The translations under genes and the position numbers were made by a program. From a virus (lineage: Duplodnaviria > Caudoviricetes), in the IMG/VR virus record IMGVR_UViG_3300023119_000004: a DNA stretch of 64,000 bases. One strand, 5' to 3'. Below are positions 57,515 to 64,000 of the stretch, one piece after another (positions within the stretch are counted from its first letter, which is position 1; every line of letters starts with the position of its first letter). A model generated the notes under the pieces. The model was not told the DNA's origin. It saw nothing but the letters and a program-made list of their open reading frames with translations, and did not search any database.

Positions 57515-58990
57515 TTATCCTAAACTTAGTACTAACTCCAATGCAATGTTCTGTGCATCTGTTTGTGAAACAGCACCTGAACTACCTGCAACTGAATCCC
57601 ATTGTGTACCATCATAAATTTCTAATCTTCCGTCTGTTGTATTCCAACGCATCATACCAATAACTGGTGAAGGGTGTCTTTGAGCACCAGTACCTACCGG
57701 AACAACAAACCCTTCAGTACCGTCAAACTTAAAATAGCCTCCATTTGGGCTAGAAAACGTTAAAGCACCGCCGGCTACAGTATTATTTATAGTACTTCCA
57801 CTAATATTAACATCACCAATTTGTACACCGCCTGTACCGTTTGGTGATAAAATTAAGTCTGTATTAGCAGTTGTTGTACTGATAGTGTTACCGTCAAGTC
57901 TTATACTGTCAACTTGTAATCTAGCAACATTAAATTCTTGTTGTGTAACTGTAGCAATTAGTGAACCACCTGCATAAAATCTAATAGTATCATCATTTGC
58001 ACCTGGTGTTAATTCTGCTGTAATATATGTGTCAGCATCTAGGTCATATACTCCTGTTAGTACAATCCAGTTACCGTCATAACCTTCAAACTTATTTGTA
58101 TCTGTGTTATAACGAATCATACCAACTGCTGGAATTGCTGGTCTTTGTGCTGTTGTGCCTGACGGAATTCTAATAGATCCAGTAGCGTCAATATCCATTA
58201 CACCACTTGCAGGTGCAATAGTAATATCATTAGCAGAACTAATTCTGCTACCTTTAAAAATAAAATCGTCAATAATAACAGATCCATTACCTGCGTAACG
58301 TAATTCTAAATCTGCATTTGAAACTGTGTTTTGAATTACACCAGTATCGATTTGAATGTCATCAATGTAAGCACTTCCAGCATGAATACTATTCCATGTT
58401 TTTGCTGGTGTACCTAAGTTGTATGTTGCAGTTTGATCTGGTAATAAATCTGAAGTAATACCTGCATTAATGCTAATAGTATCTGTTGCTTCATCGCCTA
58501 TTACAACGTTACCTGCAACTGTTACATCACCACTAGCATTAATATTTCCTGTAACATCTAAATTACCTGTAATATTAGTATGACCTGTAATGTTAACTTC
58601 TCCAGTTCCGTCTGGAAAAATATCAATATCAGCATTTGATACTGTTGTAGAAATTACGTTTGTTTGAAATCTTAAATCGTCTACTTCAAAAGTTTTTAAT
58701 GAAGTAACTTTGTCTGATCCTACTGTTTGTAGTTGTAATGTGTTTCCAGTTGTTTCAACAGTATTACCACTTATACGTACATCGCCGACATAAGCAGTAC
58801 CTGAAGTTACTGAATCAATTGATCTTAGTGTTCCGTTAATATCTAAATCGTATTGTGGACTAGCGGTATTGACGCCGATCTTGCGGTTATTAACATCTAA
58901 GTAAAGTAAATCCGTTTCAAATGCTAAATCAACTCCATTACGAAGAAGATTTTGCTTTAAAAGCGGACCCGAAATACGACCTACAGCCAC
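57515..58990 (-). CDS. Virion structural/fibre protein; start revised to GTG 58990
   Basis: GAGGAG SD 7 nt before GTG; repeated IPSGTTAQRP...GMIRYNT modules; C-terminal LVLSLG. Confidence 0.7.
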   Translation of the reverse strand: MAVGRISGPLLKQNLLRNGVDLAFETDLLYLDVNNRKIGVNTASPQYDLDINGTLRSIDSVTSGTAYVGDVRISGNTVETTGNTLQLQTVGSDKVTSLKTFEVDDLRFQTNVISTTVSNADIDIFPDGTGEVNITGHTNITGNLDVTGNINASGDVTVAGNVVIGDEATDTISINAGITSDLLPDQTATYNLGTPAKTWNSIHAGSAYIDDIQIDTGVIQNTVSNADLELRYAGNGSVIIDDFIFKGSRISSANDITIAPASGVMDIDATGSIRIPSGTTAQRPAIPAVGMIRYNTDTNKFEGYDGNWIVLTGVYDLDADTYITAELTPGANDDTIRFYAGGSLIATVTQQEFNVARLQVDSIRLDGNTISTTTANTDLILSPNGTGGVQIGDVNISGSTINNTVAGGALTFSSPNGGYFKFDGTEGFVVPVGTGAQRHPSPVIGMMRWNTTDGRLEIYDGTQWDSVAGSSGAVSQTDAQNIALELVLSLG

Positions 58991-59134
58991 TTTATTGCTC
59001 CTCAATACGGGGATCCTGTCCCTCTAGCCTAATTTTCATCCTTACATTATTGCTCGGCTCTTTGCTGGCTAACCACAGTATGTCCCATACTACAACTAAG
59101 GGTCTCTCTCCCTTAATCGGTCTTGTAGTATGTT
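58991..59134 (-). ncRNA. Candidate structured 5' leader RNA (144 nt)
   Basis: TAAATA at 59140-59145; 10-bp stem 59132-59123/59095-59086 with inner UAAGGG/CCCUUA stem; further UAGCC/GGCUA and GGGA/UCCC pairings. Confidence 0.55.
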
Positions 59135-59158
59135 AATAGTATTTATCGAAAATGGATA

Positions 59159-60631
59159 TTAACCTAGTGCTAAGGTATAGATAAAGCCTAATTCTTCCAT
59201 GTAGTCTTCATTAACTGTATCACCTGCACCCGAAACGTTATTCCAATTACCATCAGCATAAGTTTCAAGATATCCTAGGGTAACGTTAAAACGTGTAGTA
59301 CCTTCTTGTAGTGTTGCACCACCCGGTCTTGCCGCTAATGACCCCGAAGGAATTACAAATCCGCCAGTATCTGCAAATTCAACACGACCGTATTGCGTAG
59401 GTACATTATTTGTTCTAGTAAACACAAAATCATTCGTTAGACTTGTGTTAGTAATAGTAGCACCATTAAAATCTAAATCATACATTCTAACTGTACCTGA
59501 ACTTGGTACTAGATTAATATCTGAATTAGTTACTTGGCTACTAATAGTTCCGTTATCAAATGTTAGATTATCCTGAGAAACTAATCTAGTTGACACAATT
59601 CCTAAATCTGTCAATGTATGATTTGTAACACCATTTGTTGTAAAATCGAAATAGTTTCCAGCATTTGCTAGTACATAAGTCTGTCTATCTTCACTCCAAA
59701 TACCCCTTAACGGAGTATATGCACTTGAAAATAATTCAAAGAAATTTGTAGTTGTATTATAACGAACATCTCTAAACAAGTTAGGACGTTCTGCTTCAGT
59801 ACCGTGCGGAACATTTAGTGCTCCAACTCCGCTAATCCCGATGTTAGCACCCGGATCTAAATTAAATGTTGTTGAGTTTGTTGTAGTTAATGTACTACCG
59901 CTAATTCTCATATCATCAATGACAATAGCACCCGTACCACTTGCTCTTAAAATTAAGTTATTACCCGAACTTGTTGTAGTTATGTAATCATTATCAATTT
60001 CAATGTCGCCAAATTTTGCTTTTGCGGCTGTAACGTTATTCCAAACTTTTGTAGGGCTACCTAAATTAAGATTATCCTCAGTTCTATTAGGAACTATGTC
60101 TTGTGAAAAATCTACTAAACTAAAATTAATTGTATCTGTTTCTTCATCACCAAATACAAAGTTACCGCCAACAGATAAGTTACCTGGAATAGTAACATTA
60201 CCAGTAACATCAATATCTCCAATATGGTTTACATTTTTTCTAAAGTGTGTAATACCTGTTCCATGAGGTTGAAAGTTTATGTCACTGTTTGATAAACTTG
60301 TAATATCGTTATTATTAAAAACTAAATTGTCAGTATGTAACTGTTCTGCTCTAACTAAATTAGCAGAATTTAAATTAATATCTCCAACTGTTGCTCTTAC
60401 GCCAGTTGTACTAACTTCAATATTTCCCGAAGTCTTTCTAGTAAAATAACCATCGCCGTACCAAGACTGTCCTAGTACTTGTACAAGGTCTGTTGGAGAA
60501 TTTGTAAGGACACCTATTCGTGTATTACTCGATCCAATATGAAGTAGATCAGTTTCAAACGCTAGGTCAGACTGTGTTCGAACTAAGTTCGATGCTAATA
60601 ATGGACCTGATATTCTTGCTATTTGTGACAT
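59159..60631 (-). CDS. Virion structural/fibre protein, paralog of 57515-58990
   Basis: N-terminal RISGPLL.SNL.R...DLAFETDLL shared with its neighbour; C-terminal YTLALG. Confidence 0.7.
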   Translation of the reverse strand: MSQIARISGPLLASNLVRTQSDLAFETDLLHIGSSNTRIGVLTNSPTDLVQVLGQSWYGDGYFTRKTSGNIEVSTTGVRATVGDINLNSANLVRAEQLHTDNLVFNNNDITSLSNSDINFQPHGTGITHFRKNVNHIGDIDVTGNVTIPGNLSVGGNFVFGDEETDTINFSLVDFSQDIVPNRTEDNLNLGSPTKVWNNVTAAKAKFGDIEIDNDYITTTSSGNNLILRASGTGAIVIDDMRISGSTLTTTNSTTFNLDPGANIGISGVGALNVPHGTEAERPNLFRDVRYNTTTNFFELFSSAYTPLRGIWSEDRQTYVLANAGNYFDFTTNGVTNHTLTDLGIVSTRLVSQDNLTFDNGTISSQVTNSDINLVPSSGTVRMYDLDFNGATITNTSLTNDFVFTRTNNVPTQYGRVEFADTGGFVIPSGSLAARPGGATLQEGTTRFNVTLGYLETYADGNWNNVSGAGDTVNEDYMEELGFIYTLALG

Positions 60632-63511: not shown

Positions 63512-63545
63512 AAAAAAATAGGCCCAATGCGAACAGAGGGCCTAT
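63512..63545 (-). terminator. Intrinsic terminator after the cold-shock gene
   Basis: AUAGGCCC/GGGCCUAU stem followed by UUUUUU. Confidence 0.8.
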
Positions 63546-63558
63546 AGTTGTAGTTCTA

Positions 63559-63759
63559 CTACTTGACTGTTAAGTTTACAGCAGAAGGGCCTTTTGGACC
63601 ATCCTGAATTTCAAACTGTACAGTATCGCCTTCGTTCAACGAGTGTAAGCCTGCGGCTTCTACTGCTGAAATGTGTACGAAAATATCTTTATTTTCACTT
63701 GCGATAAATCCAAAACCTTTAGCGGAGTTGAACCATTTTACTTGTCCTTGATTACTCAT
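63559..63759 (-). CDS. cspA: Cold-shock protein (CspA family)
   Basis: RNP1 [12 protein letters not shown] and RNP2 DIFVHISA; 66 aa. Confidence 0.93.
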
Positions 63760-63879
63760 GTTTTTCCTTGTTCGTGTTTATATTTGAGGAAGTTTGTATC
63801 TAATATTAGGGCGGGAGGTTTGTTAATTCTACTGCGTCTTGTTCTTATTACTGTCTTGTCTCATTTGTATTTAGTCAAT

Positions 63880-63917
63880 AAAAAAGGTTTATCCAGTCTC
63901 CCGAATAAACCTCTTTT
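63880..63917 (-). terminator. Intrinsic terminator upstream of the csp promoter (TAAATA 63868-63873)
   Basis: AGGUUUAU/AUAAACCU stem followed by UUUUU. Confidence 0.7.
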
Positions 63918-64000
63918 AGGCATAAGCAAAATAGGTAGGACTTGGTTACACCTACAACCCTTCGACGCAGATACCTATCTGAATCCCAGGAACCGACTTC

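Follow-up and report, generated by a model that had tools for sequence, protein, structure and literature searches.

The window analyzed here is a 64,000-nt stretch of viral DNA contained in a 185-kb record (IMG/VR IMGVR_UViG_3300023119_000004). On its minus strand lies a structured leader RNA (59145-58977) that forms the start of a predicted late message (Table 1). The gene downstream of the leader encodes a 491-aa fibre-like virion protein (MAVGRISGPLLK...) and is followed without gaps by genes for proteins of 109, 132 and 1773 aa. The gene upstream of the leader, which ends with a stop codon at 59161-59159, encodes a paralogue that is 35% identical to the leader-linked protein over its full length. 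Both paralogues (59159-60631 and 57515-58990) share an N-terminal anchor of ~55 aa, xRISGPLLxxNLxR...DLAFETDLL, and only the second carries the structured leader. The first-pass annotation had placed the leader at the head of a giant-fibre operon; because it sits between two tandem paralogues, the leader does not strictly head the gene block. Across the family, a leaderless paralogue lies 1.6 to 5.6 kb upstream, and never downstream, in 30 of the 67 leader-bearing loci with enough upstream sequence. For the leader-linked fibre-like gene, more than 1600 relatives exist in metagenomes; none from a cultured phage was found in INPHARED, and a PDB sequence search returned no solved relative of the protein.

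Table 1. Features of the fibre-gene leader and of the two genes flanking it (window coordinates)
Feature	Position	Strand	Basis
Upstream tandem paralogue, 490 aa, N-terminus MSQIARISGPLLASNL, plain 22-nt late leader	59159..60631	-	
Late promoter box TAAATA, T4-type, core of CGATAAATAC	59140..59145	-	sequence inspection
P1 5′ arm, pairs with 59086-59094	59124..59132	-	compensatory changes
GACC, 5′ partner in PK2; unpaired where P1 meets P1b, in most relatives the apical loop	59119..59122	-	
P1b hairpin, clade-specific, after GACC; 8 bp, loop AGAGAGA	59095..59117	-	compensatory changes
P1 3′ arm	59086..59094	-	compensatory changes; hairpin in relatives
PK1 stem 1, 5′ strand UGU	59075..59077	-	covariation
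P2 5′ arm UUAGCCA, inside the loop of PK1 stem 1, giving an H-type pseudoknot	59066..59072	-	covariation
PK1 stem 1, 3′ strand GCA, directly after the P2 5′ arm	59063..59065	-	covariation
P2a, optional hairpin in pseudoknot loop 3, AGCC...GGAU, 14-nt loop here	59038..59059	-	compensatory changes
P2 3′ arm U-[A bulge]-GGCUAG	59024..59031	-	covariation (A2 columns 88-125)
P3 hairpin GGGA-CAGGA-UCCC, 6 nt 5′ of the SD	59010..59022	-	covariation
Shine-Dalgarno sequence (SD) GAGGAG, unpaired in the consensus fold	58998..59003	-	sequence and consensus fold
GUG start codon (AUG in most other clades)	58988..58990	-	ORF listing and relatives
GGUC, i.e., Gly4 GGU and first base of Arg5, +10 to +13; 3′ partner in PK2	58978..58981	-	synonymous-site constraint, covariation
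Regulated gene, 491-aa fibre-like virion protein	57515..58990	-	PHROG matches

As the first-pass annotation had recognized, the leader is unusually long, with 149 nt from the late box to the GTG compared to 16 to 35 nt for typical late leaders in the same window, and the box, the SD and the GTG all lie on the minus strand where it had put them. The leader has a minimum free energy of −38.2 kcal/mol (z = −2.57; 2 of 200 shuffles were as good) and is present in a single copy in the 185-kb record, based on a scan of the whole record. The GTG is the start codon because relatives carry an in-frame TAG at the position of the in-frame TTG (59005) that the ORF listing offers as a start. A 13-codon upstream ORF from the AUG at 59088 was also rejected, as neither the AUG nor the frame is kept in relatives. 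Also rejected was an outer helix suggested by RNAalifold, AAUAC:GUAUU, both sides of which are invariant in that set of sequences while the 3′ side varies family-wide; moreover, this helix would be missing from late transcripts because AAUAC is part of the promoter box. Based on the spacing of T4 late promoters, the late transcript is predicted to start at the foot of P1.

The leader is a member of a real RNA family that is absent from Rfam and kept through compensating base changes. First, a protein-based search of viral contigs returned 28 full-length homologues with 71 to 87% identity, and their leaders align with the window leader. Second, a pattern search with the invariant 17-mer around P3 matched at least 118 viral contigs, which gave 100 distinct leaders; among the matches listed, all 100 open with a TAAATA box and all 100 precede a gene starting M-A-[VIL]-G-R-I-S-G-P-L-L-K. 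Third, in an RNA-unbiased search, an N-terminal protein alignment (A4) was run against metagenome contigs, with matches to at least 600 stretches; for the 80 best of these loci, covariance model R1, the E-values of which are rough, finds the leader in 80 of 80 cases, always between a TAAATA late box and an M-A-x-G-R-I-S-G-P-L-L-K gene, and always ending at the start codon of that gene. Covariation and conservation of length are both found in the leaders of MAVGRISG-type genes, the group that the earlier annotation had singled out for comparison. In total, ~170 distinct leader copies were collected, and hundreds of uncultured T4-like phage contigs carry the RNA. With at least 600 metagenome stretches encoding the linked N-terminus, the RNA is very common, and its covariance model provides an annotation marker for the start of the host-recognition gene block in uncultured T4-like phages.

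Among the cultured phages in INPHARED, neither a homologous leader nor the N-terminal domain was found by blastn and tblastn. In GTDB genomes, the pattern matched 95 times, which is approximately the chance expectation, and of 80 matches examined four are real, all on MAG contigs resembling binned phage DNA. Two very large contigs binned into a ‘Candidatus Neomarinimicrobiota’ MAG (PBPT01000016.1, 335 kb, L344; PBPT01000082.1, 153 kb, L410) carry the leader at 98.5 bits; they probably derive from jumbo phages and were wrongly assigned to a bacterial MAG or, alternatively, give a hint of the host; a Dehalococcoidia MAG (L354) and a Chitinophagales MAG (L405) provide similar cases. Genes starting MAIGRISGPML... 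that directly follow an upstream gene and have neither late box nor leader were observed in L286, L294, L306 and L314. The N-terminal anchor domain, thus, has a broader distribution than the RNA.

From 5′ to 3′, the leader consists of the late box, P1, a variable junction, ACUGUGG, the P2 5′ arm (UYARCCN), GCAAWG, the optional P2a, the P2 3′ arm with one bulge, P3, 3 to 8 nt, AGGAG and then AUG or GUG. P1, P2 and P3 had been noticed in the first-pass annotation, the latter two as UAGCC/GGCUA and GGGA-CAGGA-UCCC, and both of these covary in relatives; the pseudoknots PK1 and PK2 were missing from it. In P2, five to six of the seven pairs have compensatory changes. In P2a, which is absent in short forms and has a GNRA tetraloop in most relatives, this is the case for three of three to four pairs. 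P3 is invariant as GGGA/UCCC in the marine clade, is GGCA/UGCC elsewhere and CCGUG/CACGG in the freshwater-like clade; all four pairs are changed on both sides in other clades, and the loop varies in length. Since relatives preserve P1, P2 and P3 through compensatory changes, these three helices far exceed chance expectation. At one P2 pair (A3 columns 15-59; window 59069/59027), we observed an A-C mismatch in 16 of 98 sequences (AACC...GGCU) in addition to A-U, G-C and U-G; this mismatch may be a protonated A+-C wobble.

Mutual information flagged the P2 pairs together with one unexpected pair, between the U of ACUGUGG and the A of GCAA. The corresponding element, PK1, is a 3-bp stem UGU:GCA around the P2 5′ arm, i.e., an H-type pseudoknot with a loop 1 of 2 nt (GG) and no loop 2. 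Counts for PK1 are unbiased because it was not part of the model. In the protein-selected alignment A5, one PK1 pair is U-A in 57 sequences, C-G in six and A-U in five, and the second pair is U-G in 60, C-G in four and U-A in four, without any unpaired cells. In a tree of 168 rows built from 270 nt of downstream coding sequence, the PK1 pair is U-A in 141 rows, C-G in 23 and A-U in four, and is never unpaired; it changed 11 times, and all six independent contrasts on supported branches are concordant (p = 0.031). Overall, 96.9% of cells are paired in the pattern-selected alignment A3 and 97.1% in A5, with 31 to 54% and 29 to 54%, respectively, in slid controls, and in both alignments none of 500 shuffles reaches the observed covariation. 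Because the sequences are related, the shuffle controls overstate significance, and the tree-based contrasts are the conservative figures. Outside the helices, ACUGUGG, GCAAWG and, in the marine clade, the flanks of P3 are near-invariant although unpaired.

The pattern of substitutions also bears on whether selection acts on RNA or DNA. In T-even phages, the conserved sequences that flank fibre cassettes are known to serve as substrates for recombination. Here, conservation covers the leader and the first ~55 codons, whereas identity over the remainder of the gene falls to about 35 to 50%, and the leader is located between tandem paralogues, as would fit a recombination linker for fibre modules or a protein-binding site on the DNA for which the RNA fold is incidental. 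We consider such a DNA-level element very improbable. Compensatory changes maintain base pairs in five helices, long-range ones included, and P1 and P3 drift in sequence yet retain their structure, contrary to the requirements of a homology linker. Moreover, the conserved G-U pairs (P2 12-62, PK1 9-19) work on the mRNA strand only and would be A-C on the opposite one; therefore, the fold belongs to the mRNA sense strand.

Of 96 distinct 5′ parts, 95 form the P1 hairpin even though its sequence is unalignable across clades, and five of its eight pairs have compensatory changes within the window clade. In the window sequence, it corresponds to a hairpin of 10 bp (CAUACUACAA/UUGUAGUAUG) that had been noticed in the first-pass annotation, which had proposed that the AGUAUG of its 3′ arm alternatively pairs with a second CAUACU (59082-59077). 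Both elements are present, both pairings are possible in the window sequence, and the alternative hairpin has a predicted stability of −4.5 kcal/mol; however, this hairpin is at chance level, is particular to the window sequence and occurs in none of the 16 nearest distinct relatives, and the junction after P1 is free to vary across the family. A two-state switch between these pairings is, thus, refuted as a conserved feature and exceedingly unlikely, and what stands of the earlier proposal of a cis-regulatory RNA is a conserved, structured and gene-specific leader. Examples of the junction are GGGACAU, AGGGUCAA and AUCUUUU. It is absent, together with P1, in a minimal variant (L121:6615-6705) in which the late box is followed by 5 nt and then ACAAACUGUGG; this variant retains PK1, P2, P3 and GGUCG and is useful for defining the core. 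P1b has compensatory changes, e.g., GUGA/UCAC versus UAAGGG/CCCUUA, and is missing or different in most other clades, some of which have different hairpins inserted at this spot (e.g., L088, L116 and L197). Its purine loop lies within GGAGAGA(N)A (59103-59111, minus strand; also in L001-L028), in which an SD-like GGAG is kept while the stem covaries. This loop could serve as an additional contact or as a standby site.

In the same 95 of 96 leaders, P1 starts 7 to 8 nt after the late box, i.e., at the predicted 5′ end of the late transcript. Stem-loops at the 5′ end stabilize mRNAs such as ompA and T4 gene 32, and the message here is long, with the genes for 491, 109, 132 and 1773 aa lacking gaps. 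The leader could, thus, be a constitutive stabilizer or processing shield in which the 5′ hairpin and pseudoknots block a 5′-end-dependent RNase without translational regulation (for T4 mRNA decay, see the review PMC3014915). For this function, a 5′ hairpin would suffice, leaving the near-invariant core, PK1 and a constraint on codons 4 and 5 that covaries with the P1 loop unexplained, and the leaders of the window's other long late genes are plain, at 16 to 35 nt. On balance, we regard pure stabilization as unlikely.

The second pseudoknot, PK2, connects P1 to the coding sequence. At the level of sequence, the GACC of the P1 loop is shown to be complementary to codons 4 and 5 (GGU-C), and the two covary; in the window, 59122-59119 pairs with 58978-58981. 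Several lines of evidence support this pairing. First, GACC is unpaired within the leader in 72 of 96 distinct sequences. Second, Gly4 is encoded by GGU in nearly all leader-linked genes, compared to 48% of the Gly codons at other positions of these genes; similarly, Arg5 is always CGN with a free third base. The most frequent Arg codon of the leader-linked genes, AGA, never occurs at this position, and AGA/AGG account for 51% of Arg codons elsewhere. Third, in a targeted scan of GGA-CGN starts, eight of eight distinct leaders carry GUCC in the P1 loop; two of these belong to the marine clade and the rest to the freshwater-like clade, in which GACC/GGU relatives exist too. Other variants of the P1 loop (GACU, GGCC, GAUC and GGCU) are wobble-compatible with codons 4 and 5. 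Overall, the complement is present in 141 of 146 sequences without any discordant combination, giving a pairing of 4 bp that extends to 5 bp in ~60% of sequences. On the tree, GACC/GUCC switches ~4 times (two to four independent events), and the contrasts are all concordant but too few for a sign test. Fourth, the leaderless paralogues provide a natural control: they use AGA as the Arg codon in 26 of 30 cases. Thus, the GGUC constraint follows the leader and not the protein. Because five leaders lack the complement, and L121 lacks P1 altogether, PK2 is dispensable in some phages. Other partners and extensions were rejected: extension of PK2 by positions −1/−2 is without covariation; GGUY in the junction after P1, as a partner for GACC, is present in only ~20% of leaders, and the window has GGGAC instead; and the core UGGUY, as a partner for GACC, is still GGUC or GGUA in leaders with the GUCC variant.

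The first-pass annotation had considered a match to a known family as removing novelty; the fibre-gene leader is not accounted for by Rfam. Against Rfam 15 (4227 models, with riboswitches, ribozymes and leaders of ribosomal-protein genes among them), the window leader gave only a spurious 12-bit match to DUF2693 at E ≤ 10, 20 diverse members gave no match on any leader at E ≤ 1, and a scan of the whole window at gathering thresholds gave no match for this leader; one sub-threshold match to the S15 model lies elsewhere, in a coding region. The other long late leader of the window, at 63 kb, is a different matter. The GGAUC...CCCCGUA motif that had been reported to occur there is present (63033-63019), and it had been taken as a link to the fibre-gene leader. 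However, the 63-kb leader is a full-length Rfam freshwater-2 RNA (RF02980; 62974-63058, minus strand; 71.6 bits with a membership threshold of 49.9 bits) and the only copy in the window and the 185-kb record. The motif falls in hairpin 2 of freshwater-2, the consensus of which does not conserve GGAUC; the freshwater-2 model does not match 58960-59170 even at E ≤ 10, and the covariance models of the two RNAs do not match each other's leader. We, therefore, reject a kinship between the two leaders, and since the 63-kb leader is freshwater-2, the likeness is coincidental. The freshwater-2 RNA directly follows a GATAAATAC late box and precedes a gene for 146 aa without a family match. Nearby, the cspA thermoregulator model (RF01766) has a sub-threshold match at 63515-63962 (minus strand; 48.7 bits versus a gathering threshold of 78; E ~2e-10) that spans a 66-aa ORF (63559-63759) and suggests a phage-borne cold-shock-protein gene with a long cspA-like 5′ UTR.

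Ribozymes are common in phage metagenomes, and a compact doubly pseudoknotted fold with invariant unpaired nucleotides would be compatible with a self-cleaving or otherwise catalytic RNA. We consider this extremely improbable, as no match to twister, pistol, hatchet, hammerhead or HDV-like ribozymes was found (window leader at E ≤ 10; 20 members at E ≤ 1) and the order of helices, as read from the sequence, is unlike the nested double pseudoknot of HDV-like ribozymes. A metabolite-sensing riboswitch, in which the core junction nucleotides bind a small molecule and thereby stabilize or release the pairing of the P1 loop with the ORF to control fibre translation, is improbable to a lesser degree. 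Covarying helices with nearly invariant unpaired nucleotides in junctions and loops are a typical riboswitch pattern, as are an H-type pseudoknot near the SD and optional stems of variable length; lacking a match to an Rfam class, it would be a new class. However, the sole gene controlled encodes a structural fibre-like protein and points to no ligand, while known riboswitch classes almost always precede metabolic, transport or signalling genes. Moreover, the freshwater-like clade has a P3 entirely different in sequence and loop from the one that is invariant in the marine clade, and part of the presumed “pocket” is, therefore, not universal.

Altogether, we favor a model, which we hold to be reasonably probable, in which the leader represents a new and widespread family of 5′ leader RNAs on the mRNA of a late fibre-like gene in uncultured T4-like, often jumbo, phages of marine and freshwater habitats, and in which it gates translation in cis. 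Because the ribosome-binding site (RBS) is predicted to be enclosed in a doubly pseudoknotted fold, the leader most likely controls translation, and because the P1 loop would pair with codons 4 and 5, it most likely sets the amount of fibre protein made. We suggest that PK1 and PK2 would close the RBS into a compact fold in which P3 and PK2 bracket the unpaired SD and start codon. The initiating 30S subunit gives a toeprint at about +15/16. PK2 is predicted to lie within this footprint and, therefore, would have to melt for initiation. In this way, the RNA would throttle or gate translation of the leader-bearing paralogue relative to its plain-leader twin upstream. The near-invariant unpaired core nucleotides may form a docking surface for a putative effector, for which the fibre protein itself or another late protein is a candidate; we consider a protein more likely than a metabolite, as control is confined to a single, structural gene. 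Several observations weigh against this model. Five leaders are without the PK2 complement, and L121 is without P1. The SD and start codon are unpaired, so that the fold might equally enhance or merely tolerate initiation, and PK2 has only 4 bp, with a compensatory switch that rests on two to four independent events.

A more specific version of translational gating, namely a conditional switch that answers to a protein or ligand and adjusts the ratio of two alternative fibre paralogues sharing one N-terminal baseplate anchor, is speculative and on the unlikely side. The control of fibre stoichiometry that the first-pass annotation had envisaged would fit with the upstream paralogue having the same N-terminal anchor and a plain leader. 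If the conditional switch were true, abundant T4-like jumbo phages of marine and freshwater habitats would adjust the apparatus with which they adsorb, and perhaps also the range of their hosts, by means of an RNA that senses either the condition of the infected cell or the supply of unassembled fibre. Structured leaders on late structural genes of phages are almost unexplored. The fibre-gene leader offers five covarying helices and a testable long-range pairing that constrains synonymous codons inside a gene, and its presence on one of two tandem fibre paralogues leads to the testable hypothesis of RNA-level control of fibre choice. A full-text literature search returned no description of this RNA. 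As far as we can see, novelty lies in the covariation-backed PK1, in PK2 as a loop-to-ORF pairing that constrains codons, in the linkage to the gene in 80 of 80 loci and in the context of tandem paralogues.

Several known systems resemble the fibre-gene leader in part. Besides gp32, precedents for autogenous control include the S15 and S4 leaders and the P22 scaffolding protein. In the E. coli rpsO/S15 (RF00114) and alpha operon/S4 (RF00140) leaders, a hairpin loop pairs at or after the start codon, and the protein stabilizes a pseudoknotted RBS fold that traps or excludes the 30S subunit. The fibre-gene leader likewise has a loop that pairs at or after the start codon (PK2, +10 to +13) with the RBS within the pseudoknot; by contrast, the layout of helices and the class of gene differ, and there is no homology to RF00114 or RF00140. 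By analogy, these entrapment leaders could be the best guide to how PK2 acts. Freshwater-2 is similarly an orphan structured leader of uncultured phages that follows a T4-type late box, precedes a gene for a virion protein and has an unpaired strong SD at its 3′ end; it differs in having three simple hairpins, no pseudoknot and another downstream gene. The preQ1-II, SAM-II/SAM-V and guanidine-III riboswitches share an RBS-proximal H-type pseudoknot with conserved loop nucleotides. Unlike in these, the SD of the fibre-gene leader is outside the helix, the gene is structural and there is no Rfam match.

Among T4-type phages, the 5′ pseudoknot of gene 32 mRNA in T4, T2 and RB69 is an autogenous translational operator (Uzan & Miller 2010, PMC3014915); according to this review, no other viral pseudoknot may serve in translational autoregulation. 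In that operator, an unstructured A+U-rich tract with UUAA repeats extends over the RBS for cooperative binding (PMC3014915). Both are leaders of T4-type phages with an H-type pseudoknot 5′ of the RBS, which is coaxially stacked in gene 32. However, action in cis on translation is demonstrated for gene 32 and inferred for the fibre-gene leader; gene 32 encodes a ssDNA-binding protein rather than a late fibre-like protein; and instead of an A+U-rich tract, the fibre-gene leader has the G+C-rich P3 near the SD, while PK2 reaches into the ORF. No similarity between the two was found in sequence or with covariance models. In the T4 genes e, soc and 49 (reviewed in PMC3014915), the late promoter lies inside an inhibitory hairpin that sequesters the SD or start codon on longer transcripts, and late transcripts are made without this hairpin. 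These genes and the fibre gene have in common that mRNA structure near a late promoter sets, or is predicted to set, translation of a late gene. They differ in that, in the fibre-gene leader, the TAAATA box lies 7 to 8 nt 5′ of the first helix and the SD is unpaired in the consensus; with all helices located downstream of the promoter, the late transcript would contain the complete fold.
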